The notes below the pieces were generated by a model. The model was given only the letters and a program-made list of their open reading frames with translations. It made no database searches and had not been told where the DNA came from. The position numbers were made by a program, and so were the translations under genes. 64,000 nt of DNA from positions 6,844 to 70,843 of the forward strand of contig CAMUZA010000002.1 of NCBI GenBank assembly GCA_947165085.1, written 5' to 3'. Of the stretch, positions 2,556-63,999 are shown piece after piece; within the stretch, counting starts at the first letter, position 1; each line of letters begins with the position of its first letter. The DNA comes from an uncultured Clostridia bacterium (lineage in GTDB: Bacteria; Bacillota; Clostridia; Oscillospirales; Oscillospiraceae).

Positions 2556-4975
2556 TGACGGATCCTCGTTTTCGGCTTCGGCTGTTCATGGGGCACGTTG
2601 ACCGGCGGCACGGCCTTCTGCTGCAATCTGCATTCACGGTCTTCCTCCGCCGGGAGAATGAGCGCGGCGTCGATCACTGCGTCTGCGTAATCGACCAGAA
2701 TGAAATTGAGCGACGCGCGGACCGTCTGGTCGATCTCTTCAAGATCCTTCTCGTTTGCGCGCGGGATTATAACGGTTTTCACGCCGTGGCGCAGCGCAGC
2801 CATGGTCTTCTCCTTCAGACCGCCGATCGGAAGAACACGTCCTCTGATCGAGATCTCGCCGGTCATGGCGATGTCGCGGCGCACGGGCGAGCCGGTCAGC
2901 GCGGAGACCATCGCAGTGCAGACCGTAATACCGGCGGACGGTCCGTCCTTAGGAACGGCACCTTCCGGGAAATGCACGTGGATATCCTTTGTTTTGTAGA
3001 AGTCCTCGGGAATATGCAAAGTGTCTGCGCGGGAGCGGATGAAGCTCATCGCCGCCTGCACGGATTCTTTCATCACCTCGCCGAGATTGCCGGTCAGATT
3101 GAGCTTACCCGTGCCCTCGGTGACGTTGCATTCGACCTCCAGCGTCTCGCCGCCAACAGCCGTCCACGCAAGTCCGGTGACAAGACCGACGGTATCCGCA
3201 GGCGCCAGCTTATCCGGCAGGATCTTCCGCACGCCCAGATAGTCCTGAAGATCAGCGCCCTTAACGCGGATTCGCTTGAGTTCAGGATCGGAGACGAACC
3301 GCATCGCGCATTTTCTGCACATCGTTGCGATCTCGCGCTCCAGATTCCGGACGCCGGATTCTCTCGTATAGCACTGGATCATTTCACGAATCGCGTCGTC
3401 GGTGACGCTGACCTGTGATTTCTTGAGTCCGTGCTTTTTCAGCTGTTTCGGCAGCAAATGCCGCTTTGCGATCATCAGCTTTTCTTCATCCGTGTAGGAA
3501 TTTAGCTCGATGACCTCCATGCGGTCGAGCAGCGGACGCGGGATCGTATCGGCGTTATTTGCGGTCGTGATGAACATGCAGTCGCTCAGATCAAACGGGA
3601 TTTCCAGATAATTGTCGCGGAACGTGCTGTTCTGCTCCGCGTCAAGCACCTCGAGCAGCGCGGCGGACGGATCGCCGCGATAGTCGCTGCCGAGCTTGTC
3701 GATTTCATCGAGCAGCAGGAGCGGATTGGAAGATCCCGCCTGCTGGATCGCGGTCAGGATCCTGCCCGGCATCGCGCCGATATAGGTCTTTCTGTGTCCG
3801 CGGATTTCCGCCTCGTCGTGGATGCCGCCGAGGGAGATTCTCGCGAGTTTGCGGTTCAGCGCGCGGGCAACGCTCATGGCGACGGAAGTCTTGCCGACGC
3901 CCGGAGGACCGACCAGACAGATGATCTGCCCCGGAAGATCCGGCGCAAGCTGCTTGACTGCAAGGATCTCCAAAATGCGCTCCTTGACCTTCTGAAGACC
4001 GAAATGATCTTCGTCCAGGATCTTCCGCGCGGCGTTGACGTCAAGGCGCTCCTTGGTCTTTTTGTTCCAAGGAAGCTCCAGCGCCACGTCAAGGTAATTC
4101 CGGATGACGGACGCCTCGGACGAGCCGTAGGGCTGCTTCGCCAGACGCTGGACTTCCTTTTCGAGTTTTTCCGCTGCCTCTTTCGGAAGCCCCGCTTTCG
4201 CGATTTTCTCGCGGTATTCGTCCAATTCCGCCTCGTCGTCGTTTTCTCCAAGCTCGGAACGGATGACTTTCATCTGCTCGCGCAGGAAGTAATCACGCTG
4301 TCCCTTGTCGATGCTCTGCTGCGTCTCGTCTTGCAGATGATTCTCCATCTCCAAAACATCCAGCTCTTTCGAAAGCAGCTTGACGGCCGTTTCCAGACGG
4401 TGTACGGGATGGAGCTGCTTGAGGACGGTCATCTTATCGGCATAGCCGAACGTTGCAGCCTGCGCGATCAGATCGGCGATCAATCCGGGATCTTCGGTTG
4501 CCAGAATCCGCAGCATGTATTCCTGTACCGGACGCTGCGACAGCTCTGAGAAATCCTCAAAGAGCTGGACTGCCTGCCGCTTGAGCGCCTCGATCTTCGT
4601 CGTTCCGGCAACGTAGTCAGCGTCCGGCACGGACTCCGTGCGGGCAAGCAGATACGGCGTCTTCTGGATGATCTCCGTGATCTTCGCGCGATATTCGCCG
4701 AAGACCAGGACGCGCACAGAATCGCCTGGCATTTTCAGCACCTGCCGCACATGCGCGACCGTGCCGATCGAGTAAAGATCCGAAAAATCCGGATCGTCCT
4801 GCAAAATGTCCTTCTGCGTAATCAAGAGGATTCTCTGATCGCCAGACATTGCCTTATCCAGCGCGCGGACGGACTTTTCTCTGCCGACGTCAAAATGCGT
4901 CGTCGTCTGGGGAAACGCCGTCAGTCCGCGCAGGGCAAGCACCGGCATGCGTTCGGAAATAATAATCTCGTTCAT
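2552..4975 (-). CDS. lon: ATP-dependent Lon protease
   Basis: Walker [17 protein letters not shown], catalytic [15 protein letters not shown]. Confidence 0.98.
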
Positions 4976-51388: not shown

Positions 51389-53746
51389 TCATCCCTTTAT
51401 CTTTCTTATCAAGCGTTTGACCTTAGAACCATAGCGCCGGATCGTCTTTTTTGTTCGCTGCGCCAGTGTCGGTCGGAGCAAACGCTTCACGAGCTTCTCC
51501 ATCGACTCACGTTGCCTTGCGGCAAAGAAGGCGTCGCGGTTCGGATGCCACGGAACGCTGTGCGTCGTTGCATGATTCATCTGCGTCGCACGGTCGAGAT
51601 CGGTTTTCCCGATTATCAGACTGTCGGAAACAGTCTGAAGAAGCTGCTTCCCCTTTTCGCTGTGCGCCAGAATCAAGGAGACACCCTGCTGCTGTTTCAG
51701 CTCCGGATGTACCAGTTCTACGCCCCAATAGTCGGCAAGCGTCAAATCGCTCGTTCGTGCGACTGTCTTATACTGGCATTGATAACAGGAGGGGCGCAGC
51801 GTCAGATTTGCAAGGAACGCTCGCTCATAGGGATCCTTTGTCGCAAGCTCGCGGTAACTTGATCCATCGGCATAAGTGACTTTCATGGAGAACCCGTACC
51901 AACCGAGCGTTTTATCTCGGAAATTGACCGATGCGATCTGCTTATCGCCGTGCGTCTGCTCCAGATAATCCTTCCAGGCCTCCGGTGAAGGCACGCCGTG
52001 ACAGATAATATCTTGTGTAAATAAGTTCTCGTCGTCTTTTCCCAAATACTGCTGCAGGGCAGCGATCTGGCAGGGTGTACCGCTGAACAGCACCGGACGA
52101 TTCTCTTTCAGAAGAGAGCGAACCTGCCGCAGGGTATCGCCGAGGTCGCTCTGCACGTATTTTGACGTGCGCAGGCGAGCGATTTCCTCCGGTTTATCAA
52201 TTCTTTGGTGACATACGCGGAAATCCGAATCGAATCCCGCGCCGAAGGCCACGCCGCCGCGCTGCAGGATCTCCTGCGCCAGCAGGGTAAACACGCCGCC
52301 GGACGAACTGCTTTGACAGATCGCCGCGTCTTTCGCGAACGCGTAATACGCTTCCGGCGTTTTGTCCGCAGGCGTCACACAGTCTGCCGGACAGCTCCGC
52401 TCGCAGGCAAGGCAGCCGACGCACTTCGTTTTGTCGATGTGTGGGTAGCGGAAACCCTCCGCGTCCGCTTCCATGCGGATCGCGTCCGTCGGGCAGGCGG
52501 CTTCGCAGGCGCCACAGCCCGTGCAGTGCGCGCGGCTTGCGAGCACCGGCTGCTTCTCGTCCGTACCGGCGCCAGCCAGCGCCGTTTGTAAAAACTGTAC
52601 GGTGATTTCCCGCTCCGCCGAAACGACGGCGGCGGCCTTTGTAAAATCACAGGAATCCACGTCCGGCAAAAGCACCTTGGGGAATTGACGGTCTTCCAGC
52701 CCTGTCTTTTTCAGAACCGAGCTGATGCGGGAGGACATGGACGAGCCGCCCTCCACCCGTTCAAACACCACGAAAGGCTTCTGCAGGTTGATGGAAAACG
52801 CCGTCCCGTGGAAGGAGTCGGTAAAGACAGCACGCGCATGATCCAGCAGCCAGACGAATTCCTGCGGGTCGATATCGTAATAGCGCAGATCGCGGATGTC
52901 GCAGATATTCACGATCTCGCAGTTGTTTCGTTTTGCGTATTGCTCGATATACCGCACGTAGCGGTTGATCTCGTTGCCAAGGAAGTAGCAAAAAACATAC
53001 TCGCCCTGCGGCTTCTGCTCCGGCTCCCGCGCAAAGGCACGCCAGTCCTCCGCCGTCAGGGCGAAGGTCGGATCCAATAGTACCTTGGCGTCCCGTCCGG
53101 TCAAGTCTTTAATCAGCTTTGCGCCGGCGTCCTCGCGGACGGACAGATGCGGAATGGATGCGATCCACTCCGAAAAGTCGCGTTTTCGGCAGTCCGGCAG
53201 CTCCGATATGCCGAAGCTCGGCGCCAGCGCGATTCGCTTGTGCTCCGGCGCAAACTGCAGGAATTCGATCATGGAATTCGTATGGAAGTACGGATTCCAG
53301 ACCTGATCGCTGCCGCAGACGAACGCAGCGAAGTCCGCTAAATGCTCTCGCGGAAGCCGGCGCGCATCAAACGCGGTCGAATCCGTATGGATCACGCGCT
53401 CGCGGCAGGCGTCGAAGCGCGCAAGACGACGCTGTGCCGCTGCATCATAATCCGCCTTTCGACGTTTCGCGCTGCGCAGACCCGTGCCGTGACAGTCGCG
53501 GGCATTCTTGCACCCGTAGCGGTTTCCCAACTTCGTGAGTCGATATGCAGCCAAATAGTCCGGCATCAGCTTCCGCCAGAGTGCCGGCTTCTTTGCAGCA
53601 GAATCCGGAAAACCGCGTTTTGTTTGATTGTTCAGCGTCAATGCCTGATAACCGCAGCGTTCGATCAGGGTCTGCACCGCGTAATTCTGCAGCACGTTCC
53701 CGTAATTCGCTCCGCCCGTCATCGTGGCGATTCCGACTTGCTTCAT
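51389..53746 (-). CDS. Fusion: polysaccharide pyruvyl transferase family domain + 4Fe-4S/FrhB-FdhB-like domain
   Basis: N-terminal NYGNVLQ, GSDQVWN, SVRE, DPT, DSFHG; C-terminal [53 protein letters not shown]; one 785-aa frame. Confidence 0.88.
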
Positions 53747-53759
53747 TTGCAGGTTTCCT

Positions 53760-54893
53760 TTATTTCTGCATGTTTTCCAAAATCGTTTGGATCACTTCGT
53801 GATGAGCATCGCACCGTACGAGGTTCATTGAGATCATCGCTTTTCTGCGATTAACATACCATTTGATCAGTCGGTTTTTCATAATGCGGTTGAGCTTATT
53901 CAAAACACGATTCCATCCAAGCAACAACGGCATGTCCATCGGTGCAAGCTTCTCGCAAAACGCATCCCAGCTCTGCTTTAGAAAAGCCGGATCATCTAGA
54001 TTCGCAGACAACTGTTCCATATGCTCAAGCACTTCCCGGTTGCCTTGGTCGTCAAGAAATGATATTCCTGCCTCACCGGCAGCAAAAGCTCTGTAGGAGA
54101 CTTTGCATTCTTCATCAGATAGCGTTACAGTCGTGAGGAGACCGGTGTCCCACGCAGGATCGCCATGTTTCCCGAACAAAGCATTTCCCTGTCCGTAAAG
54201 GATCTCCGTGCCGTGGTGGTTTTCCCTCGTTCCGATGCAATGGCTGTGTTGGCAAAGAATCAGATCTGCACCAGCGTCTGCCATCGCGCGGCACTTCTTT
54301 TGCAGAAGCGGCGACGGAAGCGGGTATTCCTCAATGCCGCCATGATACAGAACAATCAGATAATTGCAGTTTGCTTTCGCGGCGCTAATGTCCTTTAGGC
54401 TACTATACGGATCGAACAAATTCGCGCCGGGCGTAGCTTCACCGGCAATGCTGAATTCATGCTCCGCAAAGCTCAAAACTCCGATACTCTGCCCTTTAAC
54501 CTTCAGAAACAACGGTTTTTCGGCCGCCTTTCGGTTATTCCCCGCGCCTACGGTCAGTATCTCGTTCGTTTCTGCAATAGCAATCGTATCTTGCAGCGCA
54601 TACGGCCCATAATCCAAAATATGATTATTCGCAAGAGACAGCACGTTGAAACCGGCACTTCTAAGAAGACGCATATCATCCGGTCGACTGCAGAAGCACG
54701 GCCCGCATTTAACAATTGGCTCTCCTTTTAAGGATATAGGAGTTTCCAGGTTTCCTATCACCAGATCAGAATCTTTAAAAGAAGCTAAAACATCTCCGAA
54801 AACCATATTAAGATCGGCATGGTCAAACGAGCTGCGGAATCCCCACGCGGGACAAATGTCTCCGAATATGCAAATCTTAATAGAATTATTCAT
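53760..54893 (-). CDS. CapA family (poly-gamma-glutamate synthesis/metallophosphoesterase-like) protein
   Basis: GD, GNLE, LANNHILDYG, YHGG.E, HSHC, YGQGN; start placed at MNNSIK. Confidence 0.85.
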   Translation of the reverse strand: MNNSIKICIFGDICPAWGFRSSFDHADLNMVFGDVLASFKDSDLVIGNLETPISLKGEPIVKCGPCFCSRPDDMRLLRSAGFNVLSLANNHILDYGPYALQDTIAIAETNEILTVGAGNNRKAAEKPLFLKVKGQSIGVLSFAEHEFSIAGEATPGANLFDPYSSLKDISAAKANCNYLIVLYHGGIEEYPLPSPLLQKKCRAMADAGADLILCQHSHCIGTRENHHGTEILYGQGNALFGKHGDPAWDTGLLTTVTLSDEECKVSYRAFAAGEAGISFLDDQGNREVLEHMEQLSANLDDPAFLKQSWDAFCEKLAPMDMPLLLGWNRVLNKLNRIMKNRLIKWYVNRRKAMISMNLVRCDAHHEVIQTILENMQK

Positions 54894-54901
54894 TGCTCCA
54901 A

Positions 54902-55819
54902 TCACACGTCTTTCACCAAAGTCCATTGATCGCCGAAAACTCTGTCGAATTCGATCGGCTCAAAGCAGCATTTTCCGCCGTTGTCAAAGTAGGTCAACTC
55001 GCCGAAGTAGATCTTTCCGTCGACGAGATAAAAATCAACGCGGACAAACTGAAACGGTTCAGCAAGATCTTCCGCGATTCTTACCATACGATCAAGGTCT
55101 GCGCGGTCGACCGGCAGGTAACCCAAGTCGCGCGATAATACGTCGTCATGCATTGGGAGCAGATTGCAGTCCATATCGTAGTAATTCCGATACTGTGTCG
55201 GCTTAAAACGATCTCCGTCGATTTCCCAGTATACGGGTTTTCCGTTGAAGCAGAAGAATTTGAAATCCCGGAGCTCACCCGTCGATTCCTGTAAAAATGC
55301 CTCCGCAATAATTCGACGCGGTTGATCTTTATATACCCACTCTCTCCCTGCCCAATAAATATCTTGGTGAAGCCAGGAGTTTAGCATCAATTTTGCTTGG
55401 CGCCAGTTTATCTTGCTCTTATCTTTCACGATAATGTTCATATGACTACCGTGCGCTGCCTTGAGCACAAACTGATCCGGCAAATCCTCCAGATGGATGT
55501 CCTTTGCCTTGTAATATACGCCGTAGAGCTCATTCAGGCAATCCCCGTATCCTTTTTCCGTGATATACTCTCGAACGGCGTATTTATCCGCGCACTTCTG
55601 CATCAGCGGCATCCGTGCGTTCAGTTTTAACCAATTTGTTTTTTCGCTGAAAGTTTTCGGGTTGTCTAGATCAATCTCTCTTCCCGATGCCTTCTTGTAA
55701 TACCGTTTAACGGCCTTTTCATCTGAGATGATTCGCGGCAGTACGAAGCATTCGATGCTGTGCAGAACGCTGATCATATACCTGCCCCAGAAGCTGCGCT
55801 TTAATTTTTTCTTCAGCAT
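54902..55819 (-). CDS. TupA-like ATP-grasp amidoligase
   Basis: NPKTFSEK.NWLK, ADKYAVREY, FVLKAAHGS, IIAE.FL, DFKFFCFNG, VRVDFY, FGELT. Confidence 0.88.
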   Translation of the reverse strand: MLKKKLKRSFWGRYMISVLHSIECFVLPRIISDEKAVKRYYKKASGREIDLDNPKTFSEKTNWLKLNARMPLMQKCADKYAVREYITEKGYGDCLNELYGVYYKAKDIHLEDLPDQFVLKAAHGSHMNIIVKDKSKINWRQAKLMLNSWLHQDIYWAGREWVYKDQPRRIIAEAFLQESTGELRDFKFFCFNGKPVYWEIDGDRFKPTQYRNYYDMDCNLLPMHDDVLSRDLGYLPVDRADLDRMVRIAEDLAEPFQFVRVDFYLVDGKIYFGELTYFDNGGKCCFEPIEFDRVFGDQWTLVKDV

Positions 55820-55901
55820 GCCTTGTTACTTTATACCTTTCATAAATAATCTAAATAATAAAAAGTATGTCTTAACATATGTAAGGCAATCTATTAATTC
55901 A

Positions 55902-56678
55902 TTATGTTTCCTCTTGCCCCAGAATTCTACCGCGCACCTCGCGGAATCTCTGGAACTCGTCCGTCAGCGTATCAATCAGCTCCACGTGCTTCTCGTCAAT
56001 CAGCGAGACAAAGTTCTGATAATTGTCGTAGCCGTGGGGCGTCCAGGAAAACGGATGGATCAGAATCTGAATCTTGGGATACTTCATCAGCGTTTCATAG
56101 TCCGGATAGCCGTAGTTCCAGCGGTGCTTTGAATCGGCAATGTACTTAACTTCCAGCTTTGTATCGTCCGTAACGTTCTCGGCATAGGTAAAAAAGTCTT
56201 TTGAATACGCGTTAATTGTATTGGGGATCGAAATGTCGTAGTAGTACACTTCTTTCACAGGCCGATGGAAGGAATACGTGTCTATGTTCATCCCCAACAT
56301 TTCGGACATAATGCGAAGCTGATCGCGTACGCCGTCTCGTACGGTCACCGGATCGAGCTGTCCGTTCAGATGATAATGCAATCCGATTTGGTGACCCCTA
56401 GCCGCCATATTGTGCAGCATCGCAACGTTTCGACGCGACAGCGCATTGTATGAATTGTTGGTAATCTGAACGAAATACGTGCTGTGAAAATTCTCTTCAG
56501 ATTCCACAAGAGAAAGCGCGTGCGCTCTGTCAATCGAGAATTCGATGTCATGCCGCATGATGATGAATTCATCTTTTCCCTTTGCGGCTTTATAATCGCA
56601 ATGCTTTCCTGTCGCCTGAATGGCACGGAGAATTCTTCTGTATTCGTCGAAGCTGGGTAAAAATTCAATCTGATTCAT
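55902..56678 (-). CDS. Polysaccharide deacetylase-like (NodB-fold/WbmS-like) protein
   Basis: RHDIE, STYFV, IGLHY, SFHRP, YIADS...W, QILIHP motifs. Confidence 0.6.
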   Translation of the reverse strand: MNQIEFLPSFDEYRRILRAIQATGKHCDYKAAKGKDEFIIMRHDIEFSIDRAHALSLVESEENFHSTYFVQITNNSYNALSRRNVAMLHNMAARGHQIGLHYHLNGQLDPVTVRDGVRDQLRIMSEMLGMNIDTYSFHRPVKEVYYYDISIPNTINAYSKDFFTYAENVTDDTKLEVKYIADSKHRWNYGYPDYETLMKYPKIQILIHPFSWTPHGYDNYQNFVSLIDEKHVELIDTLTDEFQRFREVRGRILGQEET

Positions 56679-56686
56679 CTATTCTC

Positions 56687-57580
56687 TTATCCTTTCGTAT
56701 GCGCTGGGTTACCTAATACTACGGAATGATCCTCCACATTTTTTGTTACAACGGAGCCCATTCCAACCGTCGCATAATCTCCGATGCTCGCCTTGTTGCG
56801 TATCGTGCTGTTTCCGGAGATAAAGCTCTGTTTGCCTGTTTTGGAGCCGCCGAACATAATCGTCTCTCCGACGACAAAGGTATCCTCGCCCAACTGCACA
56901 TTGTGAGAAATAAAGCAACTGTTGTCAATCTTGCAGCCTCTGCCGATCACGGTGTCGTCGATCGCGCCGCGTGCGATCACGGTCAATGCGCCGATCTGCA
57001 CGTCGTCCTCGATCCGAACGCCGCCGAACTGCGGCATGGTTGCGGCTCTCCCGTTTTCGTCGCGGTCAGTCGAGAGTCCGTCCGCGCCGATCACCGTGTT
57101 TTCACGAATTACGACGTTGTTTCCGACTTGTACTTTCCCAACGATTTTCGTTCCCGCGCCAATATACACGTTATCGCCAATAACCGCTTCGCCGCTGATA
57201 TAGGAGAATGGCATAATGACAGTCTTTTTTCCGATCACAGCAGTCTCTGCGATCATAGCGCCGTCAACATACTGCATTTTTTCCTTCTGCGGCGCATTCG
57301 AAATATGATTCTCTCTGAAAAACAAACAATATGCTGTTCGCGGATCCTTGCTCGGAATTGTCAGATTATTCCGCCGGACGGCGTCTGGGATTTCCAAGGT
57401 CGTCGGGTGAAAAATGATGCAGTTTTTGACGTCGGTGATATCTTTGATTCGATCAGAATTCTTTTCATTGATAAACATGACCGAATGATCCGACGGCTTG
57501 TCCAAAGACGCCGGATGGTATACCTCAAAGCAATACGCAGAGGAATACTTGGCAGCAGACACGCAGAATAGCTTTTTCAT
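56687..57580 (-). CDS. LpxD-like left-handed beta-helix N-acyltransferase
   Basis: Hexapeptide repeats plus [23 protein letters not shown]...DTVIG..CKIDN..FISHNV. Confidence 0.85.
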
Positions 57581-57611
57581 TTTTCTTCCTTCTCCTTATC
57601 TACAAAAGCGG

Positions 57612-58691
57612 CTATCGTTCAAAAATCCATCGGTATGGAATCATATTGGATCGAACGCTGAGATCGTATGCCCAAAACGCCGCATAGAATATGAACGTAA
57701 ACGCGCTGGCAAATTGCCTTGTCTTTCCCTTGATCATTCCGAGCATGTGGGGAATCGCAATTGCCTGGAACGGTACTAAATACAGAATAATCCGCTGCAA
57801 AAAGGAGCTGCTCATTGTAATGATTGCCAACGCGCTAAAAACGGTCAGTATATTTCCCATAAACGTGTCACGCTTGGTCAGCTCCTGGCGGCTTAAAAAC
57901 AGCCAAAAGACCGCTGCCGGTGCAGAATAAACGACAATTCTGATGATATTAACGCTCTGTGTCGTGAATTCAGAGTCAGACGCTTCGTCATCCAGAATAA
58001 AATTCGTGATCGTGAAGAGATACTCATAGGCAAGGCTGATAATCCACGTCAGTATGATGGTAATCAGCAAATTCTTGAAGTTTATCTCCCTGTACACAAC
58101 AAAATACAGGAGAATCATAATAATAGCCGACCTATGACAAAGAAAAGCGAGAAATACTGTAACACAATAGGGTATAAACTTTCGGTCTAACAGAAACGGT
58201 AATCCGCACATAATAACCGCGGTTGCAAGGTATTGTCTGGTTCCGTTAAAGCTACCATGCCAGCATCCCATAAAAATATAAAGCGCAAGGCTGAAAAACA
58301 GCGTATCAGAGCGTTTATATATTATGGAAAGGATCAAGCCAATTGTAAGCAGCGAGGAAAGAAAAATTGCCATCCATCCATCGTTAGCGATCCATCTTGC
58401 GACAGTAGCAATTAGTGCGTATCCCGGTTCATCTAACGTTGTGATTCTTTCCCAGAGTGAGTCTGCATACTTGCGAAAGTGTCTATAATATGCGCCAAAG
58501 TCCGTGCCGACATAGTACCTTAATCCTGCAACAAAAATCAGCACCAATGCCGCAATCGTATATAGCGCTTTGCTCGATCGGGAATGCTTATATGCGCCGA
58601 TCTTGTTTTTTATTTCTGTTGGTTTATCATAACTCGCTGCCCATGCGCCAAAGAAAAGTGCAACGCTTATAACAATAATATAAAACAGCAT
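57612..58691 (-). CDS. wzy: EpsG family polysaccharide polymerase (Wzy)
   Basis: GLRYYVGTDF..Y, EPGY, RQYLA, HRSAI, R...Y; about 10 TM helices. Confidence 0.82.
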   Translation of the reverse strand: MLFYIIVISVALFFGAWAASYDKPTEIKNKIGAYKHSRSSKALYTIAALVLIFVAGLRYYVGTDFGAYYRHFRKYADSLWERITTLDEPGYALIATVARWIANDGWMAIFLSSLLTIGLILSIIYKRSDTLFFSLALYIFMGCWHGSFNGTRQYLATAVIMCGLPFLLDRKFIPYCVTVFLAFLCHRSAIIMILLYFVVYREINFKNLLITIILTWIISLAYEYLFTITNFILDDEASDSEFTTQSVNIIRIVVYSAPAAVFWLFLSRQELTKRDTFMGNILTVFSALAIITMSSSFLQRIILYLVPFQAIAIPHMLGMIKGKTRQFASAFTFIFYAAFWAYDLSVRSNMIPYRWIFER

Positions 58692-58726
58692 TGAGGTTCC
58701 TCATCCAACGTTTTTTGAAAGTTAGC

Positions 58727-59542
58727 TCATGATCCGCGAACCGCTTTTCTGCTGCGGAAACGATAGATGATTTTGTATGGTATCACGGCCTTTGTAACCG
58801 TCTTTAGGAATGGTTTGATAATCCACCAGCGCGGGAACTTTAACAAGCGGTAACCGTCCCTTGTGATTAAGAAAGAATTCCACCGCACCTTCCAGGTTCT
58901 GCGTTTTACTGCCGATAAATCGTCAAGACCTAAGTAAAGAGGCTCGTTAATATTGTCTCCGGAGAAGCCGTTTGCAAAGAAGCGAAAAAAGAGTTCCCGG
59001 TCCTGTGAGCGACGTGTTCGCTCCGATACGCAATATCCCCCGAGCTGATCATAAACATATTTGTACGTCAGGATTGTTGCATGCTTAAATGGGGAAGAAT
59101 CCCGCATCGTGTATTTGTCAGGATGAACAGGCGCCAGCATTAAGCTGGTATAACCATCTTCGTTGAAATGTTGAACCGCGGTACCGACAAGCTGCACATC
59201 CGGGTGCTCCTGCAAAAAAGCGACCTGCCGAGCAAAGCGCTCCGGTGCTGATCGGTCGTCTCCGTCCATCCGCGCAACGTATTTCCCGGTCGCTGCAGAA
59301 AGGCAATGATTCAGCGAATAAGCCAAATAGGAGTTCTTTTCGTTTTGCAAGAGTTTGATTCTGTCCGGATATTTTTTTTGATACGCAAGTGCAACTTCAT
59401 AAGTATTATCCGTAGAACAATCGTCGCACATGATCAATTCCCAGTCGGTATAGGTTTGTTGGAGAATAGATTCTATTGCAGCCGGAAGCGTTTCAGCGCA
59501 ATTGTAAATACCCATAATGACCGAGATCTTGCCGTCTTCCAT
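58727..59542 (-). CDS. Glycosyltransferase family 2
   Basis: ISVIMGIYN, CDDCSTD, ARMDGDD, QD.EL. Confidence 0.9.
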   Translation of the reverse strand: MEDGKISVIMGIYNCAETLPAAIESILQQTYTDWELIMCDDCSTDNTYEVALAYQKKYPDRIKLLQNEKNSYLAYSLNHCLSAATGKYVARMDGDDRSAPERFARQVAFLQEHPDVQLVGTAVQHFNEDGYTSLMLAPVHPDKYTMRDSSPFKHATILTYKYVYDQLGGYCVSERTRRSQDRELFFRFFANGFSGDNINEPLYLGLDDLSAVKRRTWKVRWNSFLITRDGYRLLKFPRWWIIKPFLKTVTKAVIPYKIIYRFRSRKAVRGS

Positions 59543-59568
59543 CAGTTACCTCTTTCCGTTCGTACGAA

Positions 59569-60543
59569 TTACAGATTCTCCTTATACCACTCGATAGCGG
59601 CATCAATACCGCGGGCAAAGCTCCAAGACGGATCATAGCCCAACAGGCGGCGCGCCTTGGAAATATCCGCGTTGGAATGCTTGATGTCGCCCTTGCGGTC
59701 GGGCCCGTAGATCGGTTCGACATCGACGCCGAGCGCTTTCGTCAGGCCGTGATAAATATCGTTCAGATACTCTCTGCCGCCGAAAGCGACGTTAAACGCC
59801 TCGCCGGCGGCTTCCTTCGGCGCGAGGCAGGCTTTAAGGTTTGCCTCGATGACGTTTTCGATGTAGGTAAAGTCGCGGCTCTGCATGCCGTCGCCGTTGA
59901 TCGTCGGGCGTTCGCCGCGCAAAAGCTGTTTGATGAACTTCGGAATGACCGCGGCATAAGCGCCGTCCGGATTCTGCCGTCTGCCGAAGACGTTGAAATA
60001 ACGCAGGCCGACGGTTTCCAAGCCGTAATGCATGGTGTACTGCTTTGCCCATTCCTCGTCGCAGCGCTTGGTCAGCGCGTAGGGAGAAAGCAGATTGCCT
60101 TCCCTGCCCTCGGTCTTCGGCAGGTTCGGCTCGTCGCCGTAGACGGAGGAGCTGGACGCATAGACGAAGCGCTTTACGCCGTTGCGGCGCGACGCCTCCA
60201 TCATGTTCAGCGTCCCCTGAATGTTATTGGCGCAGTAGAACAGCGGCATCTCGATCGAGCGCGGCACGCTGCCCCAAGCTGCCTGATTGAGGACGTAGTC
60301 GACGCCTTCGGTCGCCCGCAGGCAGGTATCGAAGTCCTTAATATCGCCCTTGATAAAGGTGTAATTCGGATTGTCAATGAACAGGTCGACATTTTTCTGC
60401 TTGCCGGTGGAAAGGTCGTCCAGGCAGCGGACTTTATAGCCAAGCTTCAGGATCGCCTCGCAGAGATTGGAGCCGATGAAGCCAGCGCCGCCGGTGACGA
60501 GGAAAGTTGTATTCTCCGGAAATCGAACGTTTTCGTAGCCCAT
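59569..60543 (-). CDS. UDP-GlcNAc(A) C4-epimerase (WbpP/TviC-like)
   Basis: [42 protein letters not shown]; start at MGYENV. Confidence 0.9.
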   Translation of the reverse strand: MGYENVRFPENTTFLVTGGAGFIGSNLCEAILKLGYKVRCLDDLSTGKQKNVDLFIDNPNYTFIKGDIKDFDTCLRATEGVDYVLNQAAWGSVPRSIEMPLFYCANNIQGTLNMMEASRRNGVKRFVYASSSSVYGDEPNLPKTEGREGNLLSPYALTKRCDEEWAKQYTMHYGLETVGLRYFNVFGRRQNPDGAYAAVIPKFIKQLLRGERPTINGDGMQSRDFTYIENVIEANLKACLAPKEAAGEAFNVAFGGREYLNDIYHGLTKALGVDVEPIYGPDRKGDIKHSNADISKARRLLGYDPSWSFARGIDAAIEWYKENL

Positions 60544-60544
60544 A

Positions 60545-61858
60545 TTACAGTCTCCAGTAATGATAGCCTGCCGCTTCGTAGGACTTGCGGTCGAGCAAAC
60601 CCTTGAGGTCGAGCAGCACCTTCGGCGCGTTCGGCGCAAAGAAGGCGTTCATTCTCTCCATCGTGATCGACTTGAACTGCTCGTGCGCAACGGCGAGGAT
60701 GACCGCGTCCATGTCGCGGATGGAATTCATATCGACGAATTCCACACCGTAGAGGCGCTTTGCCTCGTCTGCGTCAGCGGCGGGATCGGCGATCACGGCG
60801 GTGATGCCGTATTCTTTCAGTTCATTGTAAATATCAATGACCTTGGTGTTTCTGGTGTCCGGGCAGTTCTCCTTGAACGTGAAGCCGAGGATCGCGACCT
60901 TTGCGTTTTTGACCGGCTTGTCCGCCTTGATGAGCTGCTTGACCAGATTCTCCGCGCAGTACTTGCCCATATCGTCGTTGATCCGTCTGCCGGAGAGGAT
61001 GATCTGGCTGTGATAGCCGAGCTGCTCGGCCTTGTAGGTCAGGTAGTACGGGTCGACGCCGATGCAGTGACCGCCGACCAGACCGGGCTGGAATTTCAGG
61101 AAATTCCATTTTGTTCCCGCCGCTTCCAGAACGGATTTCGTATCGATGCCCATCTTATTGAAGATGATGGACAGCTCGTTCATAAAGGCGATGTTGATGT
61201 CGCGCTGGCTGTTCTCGATGACCTTCGCGGCTTCTGCGACTTTGATGGACTCTGCCCTGTGTACGCCCGCCTCGACGACCAGCTCATAGACGTGCGCGAC
61301 CTCGTCGAGCGTCTCTGCGTCCATACCGGAAACGATCTTCTTAATCGTTTCCAAACGATGTACCTTGTCGCCGGGGTTGATGCGCTCGGGAGAATAGCCG
61401 ATCTTGAAATCCACGCCGCACTTGAGGCCGGATTCTTTTTCGAGGATCGGCACGCATACATCCTCCGTCACGCCGGGATAGACCGTCGATTCAAAGACGA
61501 CGATGCTCCCCTTCTGCAGATTTCGGCCGAGGATACGGCTCGCGCCCTCGACGGGCGTGAGGTCGGGCGTGTGGTCGTCATTCACGGGCGTCGGGACGGC
61601 AACAATGTGGAATTTCGCCTCACGGAGCCTCGTTTCGTCCGCGGTAAAGTCCACCTTGCAGGCCTTGATCGCCTCGTTGCCGACCTCTTTCGTCGGGTCA
61701 ATGCCGGACTTGTAAAGCTCAATTTTCGCCGCGTTCAAATCAAAACCGATGACGTCGATCTTTCTGGAAAACGCGACCGCGATCGGCATACCGACGTAGC
61801 CGAGCCCGACCAGGGAGAGTTTCTCTTCTTTTGCTACGAGCTTTTCATATAAAGACAT
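60545..61858 (-). CDS. UDP-HexNAc 6-dehydrogenase (WbpO/TviB-like)
   Basis: VGLGYVG, ESTVYPG, SPERINPGD, ENSQRDINIA, GGHCIGVDP, FKENCPDTRN. Confidence 0.92.
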   Translation of the reverse strand: MSLYEKLVAKEEKLSLVGLGYVGMPIAVAFSRKIDVIGFDLNAAKIELYKSGIDPTKEVGNEAIKACKVDFTADETRLREAKFHIVAVPTPVNDDHTPDLTPVEGASRILGRNLQKGSIVVFESTVYPGVTEDVCVPILEKESGLKCGVDFKIGYSPERINPGDKVHRLETIKKIVSGMDAETLDEVAHVYELVVEAGVHRAESIKVAEAAKVIENSQRDINIAFMNELSIIFNKMGIDTKSVLEAAGTKWNFLKFQPGLVGGHCIGVDPYYLTYKAEQLGYHSQIILSGRRINDDMGKYCAENLVKQLIKADKPVKNAKVAILGFTFKENCPDTRNTKVIDIYNELKEYGITAVIADPAADADEAKRLYGVEFVDMNSIRDMDAVILAVAHEQFKSITMERMNAFFAPNAPKVLLDLKGLLDRKSYEAAGYHYWRL

Positions 61859-61891: not shown

Positions 61892-62995
61892 CTATAGTTT
61901 CATGATCCGAAGCATCTCTTCGTTTACTCTGCCGACTTCAAATTTTTCCCTGCACAGGCGGACGCTCGCAGCGCCCATTTCGGGGATCTTCTCCGGGTGA
62001 AGGATAAAGGCCTTCATCCGTTCCGCCAGCGCCGCGCTGTCTCCGACCGGGACAAGATAGCCGTTCACGCCGTCTCGCACCGTTTCGCGGCAGCCGTTGG
62101 CGTCGGCGGTGATGATCGGTCTTCCCATCGACATCGCTTCTAAGACGGTGCGCGGCGTGCCCTCGCGATAGGACGGAAGAACGTAGACGCTGCACCTTGC
62201 ATAGTACGGACGCACGTCCGTCGTTTCCTCGAAGCGTTCCACGATGCCGTCCCGGAGGAAAGCTTCGATCGTTTCCCGCGGGATCGCGTCCTGCATGGCG
62301 GTCTCATATTTTCCGAGCAGGAAGAACTGCGCTTCGGGATACTCGGATTTTACGATCCTTGCCGCCTCTAGGTATTCCATGACGCCCTTGCTCTTCAGGA
62401 GGCGGGACAGCATGAAGAACACCGGCTTGTCCGGCAGCGGCGCGGGCGCGAACCATTCCATATTGACGCCGGAGCCGTTGACAACGCGGCACTTTTCTTT
62501 ATGCGCAAGGCCGTGGGAACAGAACTCTTCCAGATCGTCGGGATTCTGGAAAATAATATGATGGGTCCGTTTCAGACCGAGTCTGTACAGGAAACGGACG
62601 ATCATGCCAAGCAGTTTCGCTTTCGCGGTCTTCGCCGTGAACGTATAACCGCCGCCGGTGATCATGCCGCTGATATTCTTCACGCCTGCGGCGTGGGCGG
62701 CCATTGCGCCGTAGACCACGGGCTTGATCGTATACCCCAGGGTCACGTCCGGCTGCTCTGCAAGCATGAGCTCTTTCAACGCTTTGCGGTATTTCAGGTC
62801 GCCGGTCATGCTGGTGCCGGTCTTGTTCATCGGGATTTCGACAAACCTCGCGCCGAGCGCTTCAATCTTGTCCACGTCCGTCCGATCCGGCCCTGTCACG
62901 ATCACCTCATAACCCTTGGCGATGATCGCTTTGATCAAATCGCCGCGAAAATTATAAACCGTTCGGTTCTTGGGGGAAATCAGCAGAAACTTCAT
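61892..62995 (-). CDS. Glycosyltransferase family 4
   Basis: YTIKP..YG, FQNPDD, GSGV, SRLL..KG..EY, PSYREG.P..LEAM..G. Confidence 0.92.
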   Translation of the reverse strand: MKFLLISPKNRTVYNFRGDLIKAIIAKGYEVIVTGPDRTDVDKIEALGARFVEIPMNKTGTSMTGDLKYRKALKELMLAEQPDVTLGYTIKPVVYGAMAAHAAGVKNISGMITGGGYTFTAKTAKAKLLGMIVRFLYRLGLKRTHHIIFQNPDDLEEFCSHGLAHKEKCRVVNGSGVNMEWFAPAPLPDKPVFFMLSRLLKSKGVMEYLEAARIVKSEYPEAQFFLLGKYETAMQDAIPRETIEAFLRDGIVERFEETTDVRPYYARCSVYVLPSYREGTPRTVLEAMSMGRPIITADANGCRETVRDGVNGYLVPVGDSAALAERMKAFILHPEKIPEMGAASVRLCREKFEVGRVNEEMLRIMKL

Positions 62996-63893
62996 TTCTA
63001 TTTTCCAGCCCTTCCAGAATGATTTTCGTCAACCGTCCGTTGTTAAGCTCGCTCACAAAGCTGTTATGTGGGGTGAGAACAGCATTTTCAACGTTCCAGA
63101 GAATGCTGTCTGTTTCCAGCGGCTCCTGTTCAAACACATCCAGCACTGCGCCGCAGATTTTTCCGCTTATCAGTAACTCGCAGAGCGCCTGCTCGTCGAG
63201 GACTTTGCCGCGAGAGATATTCACAACGACTGCGGTTTCCGACAGCAGGCTCAGGCGATTACGGTTCATCAGATGCGTCGTTTCCGCGACCAGTGGGACG
63301 GTCAGCACCAAAACGTCCGTTAGAGGAAGAATCTCCTCCAACTCACGCAGCGGCAGTATCCGCTCGTAGGCTTCGTCATCTCTCGGATAGAGGTCTACGC
63401 CGAGTACACGGCAGCCAAAGGCCTGGAAGCGCTTCGCGCACTCCGTCCCGACGCTGCCGCAGCCGAGGATCGCGACGGTCTTGCCATTGAGCTCCAATAA
63501 ACCGCGGTGCTTTTCCCACTTGTGCGCTTTCTGATTCTCATAGAAAAAGCGCGTCTGCTTGTATAACTGCAACACGCCGCAGACAGCGAATTCTGCCATC
63601 GGGATGCTGTAGACGCCTCTGGCGTTATGAATCTCGATGCCGTGCGCGTTCACGTAGTCCAGATCCACGCGGTCGAAGCCGGCGCTGGTGAGCTGTATAA
63701 AGCGCAGATTCTGAAACTGTTCGATGGGGTGGTGCTGAAACAGCCCGTTGCAGATCACACCCTCGGCCCAGGCAGGGTCGCAAGGCAGATTGTCTGCCTC
63801 CTGCTGCAAAAAACGGATCGTATGGCCATGCGCTTCGATCTCGGCAAAATGTGCGCTTGCGCAGAACCACGCGCCGGTGATGAGTAGATTCAT
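62952..63893 (-). CDS. D-isomer-specific 2-hydroxyacid dehydrogenase
   Basis: SAGFD, NARGVYSIPMAE, GCGSVG, VNISRG, LDVFEQEPL, TPHNS; start placed at MNLLIT. Confidence 0.88.
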   Translation of the reverse strand: MNLLITGAWFCASAHFAEIEAHGHTIRFLQQEADNLPCDPAWAEGVICNGLFQHHPIEQFQNLRFIQLTSAGFDRVDLDYVNAHGIEIHNARGVYSIPMAEFAVCGVLQLYKQTRFFYENQKAHKWEKHRGLLELNGKTVAILGCGSVGTECAKRFQAFGCRVLGVDLYPRDDEAYERILPLRELEEILPLTDVLVLTVPLVAETTHLMNRNRLSLLSETAVVVNISRGKVLDEQALCELLISGKICGAVLDVFEQEPLETDSILWNVENAVLTPHNSFVSELNNGRLTKIILEGLENRNEVSADFPQEPNGL

Positions 63894-63903
63894 GATTCTT
63901 CCC

Positions 63904-63999
63904 TTATTCGTGATCGGCGTCCAAACTCTCGTAGATGCGGCGTACAAGACGGACGACTTCTTTTTCGTTGTCAAAGAAGAATTTGCTGTGCTGCTCACA
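63904..63999 (-). CDS. C-terminal end of an upstream gene (partial); possibly HpcH/HpaI aldolase/citrate lyase family
   Basis: Open frame CEQHSKFFFDNEKEVVRLVRRIYESLDADHE* ends just before the dehydrogenase RBS; family guess rests on recalled context only. Confidence 0.35.
   Translation of the reverse strand, partial: CEQHSKFFFDNEKEVVRLVRRIYESLDADHE

Follow-up and report, generated by a model that had tools for sequence, protein, structure and literature searches.

A 64,000-nucleotide stretch of DNA from an uncultured gut bacterium of the Oscillospiraceae (contig CAMUZA010000002.1 of assembly GCA_947165085.1; hereafter the window) carries on its minus strand two adjacent genes, one encoding a TupA-like protein of the ATP-grasp fold and the other a CapA-like protein of the PGA_cap family. 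The TupA-like gene (54902-55819) specifies a soluble protein of 305 amino acids (aa), and the CapA-like gene (53760-54893, within an open reading frame (ORF) of 53760-54926) a soluble protein of 377 aa; their Pfam matches, to PF14305 and PF09587 respectively, are full length. As read directly from the sequence, the TupA stop codon is a TGA at 54904-54902, followed by TTGGAGCA and then by an ATG at 54893. This ATG is the likely start of the CapA-like gene; a GGAG precedes it, and the closest homologues are 375-381 aa long, compatible with a product of 377 aa. The 8 bases that separate the one gene from the other (54894-54901, minus strand) contain this GGAG ribosome-binding site, so that the two genes are tightly coupled. 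The arrangement given in a preliminary description of this DNA, adjacent TupA-like and CapA-like genes with an 8-bp gap, proved exact by the Pfam matches and by the sequence at 54893-54904.

The operon to which the pair belongs starts, in the order of transcription, with genes for a Bac_transf initiating transferase, an HpcH-like aldolase, a D-2-hydroxyacid dehydrogenase and a GT4 glycosyltransferase. These are followed by a TviB-like dehydrogenase, a TviC-like epimerase, a GT2 glycosyltransferase, an EpsG-type polymerase, an LpxD-like acyltransferase and an ORF of 258 aa, and then by the TupA-like gene, the CapA-like gene, a pyruvyl-transferase/Fe-S/FrhB fusion gene, rmlA, rmlC and rmlB. More glycosyltransferases, a GNAT protein, a DegT aminotransferase, the Wzx flippase, two GT2 glycosyltransferases, Acyl_transf_3 and VanZ lie beyond rmlB. 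Judged by this gene content, the operon is a Wzx/Wzy heteropolysaccharide locus. The best matches indicate an Oscillospiraceae-like organism. The TviB/WbpO-like UDP-N-acetylhexosamine 6-dehydrogenase (60545-61858, minus strand) contains three UDPG_MGDP_dh Pfam domains and has NF011729 as its best NCBIfam match (485 bits, cut-off 592); the TviC/WbpP-like NAD-dependent 4-epimerase (59569-60639, minus strand) matches PF01370 with an E-value of 7e-62, and its best NCBIfam match is NF011728 (298 bits, cut-off 760). Because both best matches fall under the equivalog cut-offs, the names are kept as "TviB-like" and "TviC-like", the wording already chosen in the preliminary description, and the sugar product is deduced from them. 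The fusion gene (51389-53746, minus strand; 785 aa) begins 13 bases past the CapA-like stop and joins a polysaccharide pyruvyl transferase (PF04230) to a 2x[4Fe-4S] ferredoxin (Fer4 families) and the N- and C-terminal domains of FrhB (PF04422 and PF04432).

Neither capB nor capC was found within the window, as had been stated earlier. The genome as a whole, with a size of 1.93 Mb and a marker-based completeness of 100%, likewise gave no match to the models for CapC (PF14102) and PgsB (TIGR04012), both of which were matched by the Bacillus subtilis control. As the genome is without capB/pgsB and capC, the locus is not a poly-gamma-glutamate (PGA) system. The genome holds one TupA gene and two PGA_cap genes. 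The second PGA_cap paralogue is on another contig (locus L002, G000:C8:46552-47325); its product (388 aa) carries a signal of the lipoprotein type (…LLFACGD), is only very distantly related to the window protein, and may represent an extracytoplasmic PGA_cap type.

The TupA-like protein matches PF14305 (ATPgrasp_TupA) with an E-value of 3.5e-42 and 145 bits (cut-off 25) over profile positions 1-239 of 241, and in the genome search (145.8 bits) it was the sole TupA. It has more than 6000 homologues, some of them named "ATP-grasp fold amidoligase"; no solved structure related to it was found by sequence search. From its family and context it is predicted to be an amidoligase, joining an amine (an amino acid) to a glycan carboxylate with ATP. 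The one TupA-like domain studied biochemically, Cj1438C, amidates C6 of glucuronic acid (GlcA) in vitro (PMC11800379). The earlier statement on TupA and teichuronopeptide agrees with PMC8153356, in which tupA is linked to this polymer. TupA of Bacillus halodurans C-125, the namesake of PF14305, resembles what is predicted for the window protein in tying uronic-acid polymers to amino-acid material (PMC8153356). It differs in that teichuronopeptide carries poly-gamma-L-glutamate; the available portion of PMC8153356 cites no enzymology for it and reports no link to CapA.

The CapA-like protein matches PF09587 (PGA_cap) with an E-value of 1.3e-52 and 179 bits (cut-off 27) over profile positions 2-254 of 255. 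Its single NCBIfam match is the MslH epimerase (NF038314), at 45.6 bits; as this is far under the cut-off of 700, an MslH orthologue was ruled out. The sequence has no signal peptide, membrane anchor or hydrophobic N-terminal segment, and the PGA_cap domain starts at residue 7. In an AlphaFold (AF2) model, with a pLDDT of 89.6, residues 2-300 form an MslH-like core of the calcineurin fold and residues from approximately 301 to 377 a helical C-terminal domain peculiar to the clade. A Foldseek search with this model returned MslH (8gq9) first, with an E-value of 2.6e-20, followed by 5'-nucleotidases and YmdB at about 1e-9 (next E-value 1.4e-9). Alignment by VIA-align gave a Z of 35.3 for MslH (292 residues, root-mean-square deviation 2.4 A), as opposed to 17.2 for the next family, the YmdB-type phosphatases. 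All of the matches after MslH in the structure searches were phosphoesterases. When solved relatives were sought by sequence, only MslH entries were recovered, with an E-value of 2.6e-6 for the single sequence and 4.4e-17 for the profile.

MslH is a calcium-dependent epimerase of a peptide C-terminal Trp, the carboxylate of its substrate being placed at the metal (PMC10406935). Its two His/Asp dyads, H88/D91 and H295/D11, flank C-alpha from opposite sides; E44, N87, H259 and H261 are the Ca ligands, and the enzyme binds one Ca and no second metal (PMC10406935). Invariant in the CapA-like clade are D12, N48, E50, N89, N90, H91, D94, H184, E188, H216, H218, R360, C361 and H364. Residues D11, E44, N87, H88, D91, H259 and H295 of MslH (PMC10406935) align with invariant D12, E50, N90, H91, D94, H184 and H218, respectively. 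The motifs of dinuclear metallophosphoesterases (DxH, GD, GNH[DE], H and GHxH) are not found as a set in the CapA-like protein: motif I reads G11-D12-I-C-P, without the histidine, and motif II N48-x-E50, while motifs III to V are kept (N90-H91, H184 and H216-S-H218). This pattern, with no histidine in motif I and NxE as motif II, is MslH-like (PMC10406935).

To examine how the pair is distributed, a profile of 33 sequences was used with one genome per species; 216 CapA-like relatives were collected, and 80 loci were taken for neighbourhood comparison. In four CapA-like homologues (48-83% identity) a TupA gene lay just upstream in all four cases, directly in three and with an acyltransferase between in one. 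Among the best-scoring relatives, TupA was upstream on the same strand in 26 of 27 loci; the two genes either abutted (-53 to +67 bp) or were separated, nearly always by a single GT4 gene (~385 aa) and in L048 by two genes. A tree of 89 CapA-like sequences was also constructed, from which a well-supported clade of 32 members, without TupA and with non-glycan neighbours, was split off. Outside this clade, in the branch belonging to glycan loci, TupA was present within 1.3 kb in 49 of 55 rows. In the TupA tree the window protein fell into a clade of 33 rows, 29 of which were CapA-linked. The co-occurrence of TupA and CapA, which the preliminary description had put forward as a check, was thus borne out both in the best loci and in the tree, and the adjacency of the two genes is far beyond chance. 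Linked pairs were found in six phyla (Bacillota, Bacteroidota, Verrucomicrobiota, Pseudomonadota, Planctomycetota and Ignavibacteriota), and their carriers include Bacteroides, Muribaculum, Akkermansia, Veillonella, Sporomusa, Pseudidiomarina, Thermoguttaceae and Ignavibacteriales.

In two loci where TupA was missing, another type of ATP-dependent enzyme was encoded nearby. A RimK-like ATP-grasp gene overlaps the CapA-like gene in L049, in which an ATPgrasp_ST gene lies two genes upstream; in L032 a PP-loop ATPase gene is downstream of the CapA-like gene. Gene content in such loci, L049 for example, indicates that other ATP-dependent ligases replace TupA where it is missing. The members of the TupA-free clade (32 loci within L041-L093, e.g. 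L058 and L085) form a sister subfamily of soluble CapA-like proteins, which has the LCQHSHC motif in common with the window subfamily and never occurs beside TupA; in two checked cases the gene was downstream of a glucuronyl-esterase-like (PF22244) gene.

Viewed from the ligase, the association is much looser. In a sample of 300 Clostridia genomes TupA was present in 41 and PF09587 in 229, and a CapA-like gene was just downstream of 6 of the approximately 57 TupA genes whose neighbourhoods were drawn from these genomes (~10%). Three TupA homologues picked by similarity (55-80% identity) were all without a CapA-like partner. The one at the upper end of this range, 80% identical to the window's TupA (L004:5405-8921), comes after a 3-hydroxyacyl-CoA dehydrogenase and a thiolase in a glycan locus, where another cassette may feed the ligase. 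An obligatory ligase subunit was therefore rejected as a role for the CapA-like protein, since ~90% of TupA genes, including this 80% identical one, are without the partner. Because TupA is often on its own, whereas its partner is hardly ever seen apart from a ligase, the CapA-like protein is better regarded as an optional step acting on the ligase product. The module is thus optional, and it is mobile, with gain and loss of the CapA-like gene beside closely related ligases, as would be expected of a serotype-diversifying step.

A related pairing was observed in O-antigen clusters of the Escherichia coli O54 family, in at least 14 complete genomes, where a CapA-family gene (334 aa) overlaps a gene annotated as "ATP-grasp fold amidoligase". 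In E. coli MP1 (L147; NZ_CP139039.1, 1795589-1797465) the overlapping genes lie in a Wzx/Wzy cluster; rml genes are inside the O54-family cluster, and ugd and an NAD-dependent epimerase gene are just past gnd. The O54 amidoligase is 34% identical to the window TupA. The O54 CapA protein is 26% identical to its window counterpart, belongs to a distant subfamily and has no C-terminal domain, and the gene order is reversed relative to the window pair. By these sequence comparisons, the pairing of a ligase with a PGA_cap protein recurs at the family level. E. coli O54 contains ribofuranose (Ribf), and the clusters also carry a HAD hydrolase gene, which may belong to a ribofuranose pathway. The repeat of Hafnia alvei 1206 is GalA(D-aThr)-Rha-Ribf-Gal-GalNAc, in which galacturonic acid (GalA) bears D-allo-threonine (D-aThr). 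When the clusters of E. coli O110, O46 and O134 were sought by blastn, the Pseudidiomarina and Veillonella pairs gave no match and the Bacteroides pair a single weak match of 70 bases, to O54-family clusters; blastn with the O54 pair itself returned O54-family clusters and gene fragments only.

As for the carboxylate to be amidated, the TviB-like dehydrogenase is the probable source of a uronate carboxyl, and the TviC-like epimerase would, from its similarity, give UDP-N-acetylgalactosaminuronic acid (UDP-GalNAcA). The nearest CapA-less relatives of TupA are found between TviB- and TviC-like genes (L008) or beside a TviC-like epimerase gene (L004). Because these relatives are placed at TviB/TviC-like genes, a uronate of the N-acetylhexosamine type is favoured as the acceptor, and GalNAcA is the likely one. 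The combination of a TupA-like ATP-grasp gene with UDP-HexNAcA genes, which had led to the earlier suggestion of an amide on the uronate carboxyl, remains a good candidate for such amidation in view of the Cj1438C precedent (PMC11800379) and of the CapA-less relatives at TviB/TviC-like genes.

The same ligase and epimerase might instead act on a pyruvate ketal or on a 1-carboxyethyl (lactyl) ether made by the fusion enzyme, in a manner resembling muramoyl-L-alanine. The substituent produced by the fusion may be pyruvyl or, in reduced form, of the lactyl type, an alternative carboxylate that would take the place of GalNAcA, and the position of the gene is suggestive: apart from the 13-base distance in the window, it comes immediately after the CapA-like gene in L010, L011 and L012 (by Pfam) and, judged by similarity, also in L014, L016 and L036. 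Of the 27 best loci, moreover, 15 have pyruvyl-transferase matches no more than 6 kb away, as compared with 10 for TviB-like genes. We nevertheless judge a pyruvyl or lactyl acceptor to be unlikely, as the close CapA-less TupA relatives lie directly between or beside TviB- and TviC-like genes, the pair abuts TviB in L018-L020, uronate amidation is the sole activity demonstrated for the TupA-like family, and some loci with the pair have neither a pyruvyl transferase nor TviB nearby.

Taken together, these data lead us to lean, at slightly below even confidence, towards a two-step modification in which an L-amino acid is attached by the ligase, through an amide, to a glycan carboxylate, probably that of GalNAcA, and is then turned into its D-form by the CapA-like enzyme. 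In the first step, inferred from the family of the ligase and its context, the TupA-like enzyme would activate the carboxylate of a sugar unit as an acyl-phosphate and form an amide between it and an L-amino acid, which reacts through its amino group; the acceptor would most likely be C6 of the GalNAcA formed by the TviB/TviC-like enzymes, and the reaction would take place on the cytoplasmic side, ahead of flipping by Wzx. The product would be an N-acyl amino acid with its alpha-carboxylate free. As such, it would present the same local chemistry as a peptide C-terminus. In the second step, suggested by the fold, the conserved residues and the gene linkage, the CapA-like protein would act as a single-metal, two-base epimerase of the MslH type: with the carboxylate held at the metal, the alpha-proton would be taken off and a proton given back on the other face. 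The outcome would be a polysaccharide bearing a D-amino acid; L-threonine, for instance, would become D-allo-threonine, its epimer at C-alpha. Amides of D-allo-threonine with GalA or GlcA are described, in tables and cited titles of PMC7685785 and PMC10609480, for E. coli O110, O46 and O134 and for Hafnia alvei 1206.

MslH (a Streptomyces lasso peptide enzyme, PDB 8GQ9) is the nearest solved structure, and its substrate is likewise an N-acylated residue with a free alpha-carboxylate. It is unlike the window protein in requiring a leader peptide and MslB1, whereas the window clade has its own C-terminal helical domain, glycan loci and an ATP-grasp neighbour. The discoverers of MslH had proposed that CapA epimerises residues in PGA (PMC8179263), and deletion of pgsA in B. 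subtilis shifts the D/L ratio of PGA from 75/25 to 5/95 (PMC6029982). CapA/PgsA of the Bacillus PgsBCA system shares with the window protein its Pfam family and an ATP-dependent amide ligase as partner, and, by genetic evidence, controls the content of D-residues (PMC6029982). PgsA is, in contrast, membrane-anchored and needs PgsB and PgsC, whereas the window protein is soluble and its ligase has the ATP-grasp fold. The preliminary description had cast CapA as a partner of the ligase. The conserved linkage upholds this in part; the partner is optional, accompanying about a tenth of TupA genes, and for its role, on which that description was silent, the evidence points to a C-alpha epimerase of the MslH type. 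A place in PGA machinery or a phosphoesterase activity, the associations then named for the family, is not favoured in light of the top-ranking MslH structure and the MslH-like motifs.

Several observations weigh against an epimerase. Identity between the CapA-like protein and MslH is only ~21%. Seven of the eight catalytic or metal-binding residues of MslH align with invariant residues, and the eighth, the Ca ligand H261, aligns with invariant G186, for which invariant E188, two residues further on, might conceivably compensate. The C-terminal domain (~301-377), with its invariant R360, C361 and H364, has no aligned counterpart in MslH, although this ranks first among the structural matches. 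In addition, the fold is that of metallophosphoesterases, and the precedent from Campylobacter jejuni couples a TupA-like ligase with a phosphatase (PMC11800379).

These last two points lead to another possible explanation, in which the partner of the ligase is a metallophosphatase. A phospho-amine, such as phosphoserine, phosphoethanolamine or serinol phosphate, would then be joined by the ligase, and the CapA-like protein would remove the phosphate, following the logic of Cj1438C and Cj1435 with a different phosphatase fold. In the C. jejuni HS:2 capsule, the C-terminal domain of Cj1438 and Cj1435 do resemble the proposed module: a TupA-like ATP-grasp enzyme forms an amide on C6 of the uronate of the growing unit, and a second tailoring enzyme follows (PMC11800379). 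There, however, the ligase is fused to a GT2 domain, the amines are serinol phosphate or ethanolamine phosphate, and the second enzyme, which acts after the amidoligase has taken one of these, is a HAD phosphatase. The window pair has a stand-alone ligase and a PGA_cap/MslH-like partner, with no conserved phospho-amine genes nearby. A phosphatase would suit the calcineurin-like fold, every structural match after MslH being a phosphoesterase, and a D-2-hydroxyacid dehydrogenase with phosphoglycerate-dehydrogenase-like scores is encoded at the head of the locus. It remains unlikely in our estimation: with DxH reduced to GD-I-C-P and GD replaced by NxE, the active site has the identical pattern to MslH, which holds one Ca (PMC10406935); MslH scores twice any phosphatase by VIA Z; no PGA_cap member has been proven to be a phosphatase; and across the loci compared no phospho-amine synthesis gene is conserved beside the pair.

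An additional scenario gives the CapA-like protein some different role, such as that of an amidase or esterase for trimming or editing the decoration, or that of a non-catalytic scaffold for the ligase. The function proposed above was derived from one relative at 21% identity and leaves the extra C-terminal domain unexplained; furthermore, the sister subfamily is found outside glycan loci, with some members beside glucuronyl-esterase-like genes. Against a scaffold, however, stands the invariance, in six phyla, of the residues that make up the putative catalytic dyads and the metal ligands, and the ligase manages without the CapA-like protein in ~90% of loci; we regard roles of this kind as quite unlikely.

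It is also improbable that the pair, as in the stronger form of the preliminary description, builds a short peptide on the uronic acid, for instance an oligo-gamma-glutamyl chain, to give a glycan-peptide hybrid similar to teichuronopeptide, with the CapA-like protein epimerising or handling the chain as in PGA synthesis. CapA/PgsA does work with an amide ligase in that synthesis, and some loci contain two TupA genes or additional ATP-grasp genes. The present genome, on the other hand, is without PgsB and PgsC and has a single TupA gene, the TupA-like enzyme that has been studied adds one amine (PMC11800379), and the known amide-linked substituents listed in reviews (PMC7685785, PMC10609480) are single amino acids. 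An ordinary PGA capsule system with capB and capC elsewhere in the genome, for which the family name of PF09587 alone speaks, can be practically dismissed: barring unassembled sequence the genome has no CapC or PgsB while the controls match, the CapA-like protein is without a membrane anchor, and the genes sit in a Wzx/Wzy glycan operon.

The wider implication of amidation followed by epimerisation is that a soluble PGA_cap protein together with an ATP-grasp ligase could constitute a general and unrecognised route to D-amino acids in bacterial surface glycans, by L-ligation and subsequent epimerisation on the sugar, which would explain the D-allo-threonine amides of E. coli and Hafnia O-antigens. 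This generalisation is tentative, a plausible proposal falling short of an even chance. The module itself is real and widespread, and the mechanism proposed for it would combine two known types of chemistry, the amidation of Cj1438C and the epimerisation of MslH/CapA. In the literature found, no enzyme has been assigned for the D-amino acids (e.g. D-allo-threonine) that are amide-linked to uronic acids in O-antigens and capsules, and our search returned no paper joining PGA_cap/CapA proteins, ATP-grasp ligases and glycan D-amino acids. A biochemical role for CapA/PgsA-type proteins has so far only been proposed. If the proposal is true, the CapA family would for the first time have a defined activity on a small substrate, which would settle the role of CapA/PgsA in PGA capsules of the anthrax type; a soluble CapA-like enzyme acting on a small substrate (a uronoyl-amino acid) would be far easier to assay than membrane-bound PgsBCA. 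The pair is carried by many gut commensals (Oscillospiraceae, Lachnospiraceae, Bacteroides, Akkermansia and Veillonella) and by E. coli strains of the O54 type, in which it may shape surface-glycan antigenicity, phage recognition and resistance to host peptidases. To annotate CapA-like genes in glycan loci as "CapA family / poly-gamma-glutamate synthesis protein" is misleading.

Several other features of the locus were recorded. The ORF of 258 aa between the LpxD-like acyltransferase and TupA (55902-56678, minus strand) has no Pfam or NCBIfam match. It is kept in a sister locus (L010/L014), and its position in a protein atlas is near clusters automatically named as GCN5-type N-acetyltransferases, which serves as a lead only. 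The HpcH/HpaI-aldolase-like gene and the D-2-hydroxyacid dehydrogenase gene (window 62952-63998 and, past the window on G000:C2, L149:1048-1893; minus strand) come after the gene for the initiating transferase (Bac_transf) and ahead of the first GT4 gene. The best models for the dehydrogenase are D-2-hydroxyacid, phosphoglycerate and glyoxylate dehydrogenases, all under cut-off; the two genes hint at an unusual hydroxy-acid substituent or precursor. In L149 the CoA_binding_3 and Polysacc_synt_2 parts of a PglF/CapD-type dehydratase are separate ORFs (2649-3494 and 3657-4517, both on the minus strand), which might reflect a gene that is split or frameshifted, or else a fault in the assembly. 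Finally, the G+C content is ~0.47 in window positions 54001-60000, compared to 0.56-0.57 on either side, and the segment from TupA to the GT2 gene looks like a mosaic insert gained separately from the TviB/TviC and rml blocks.

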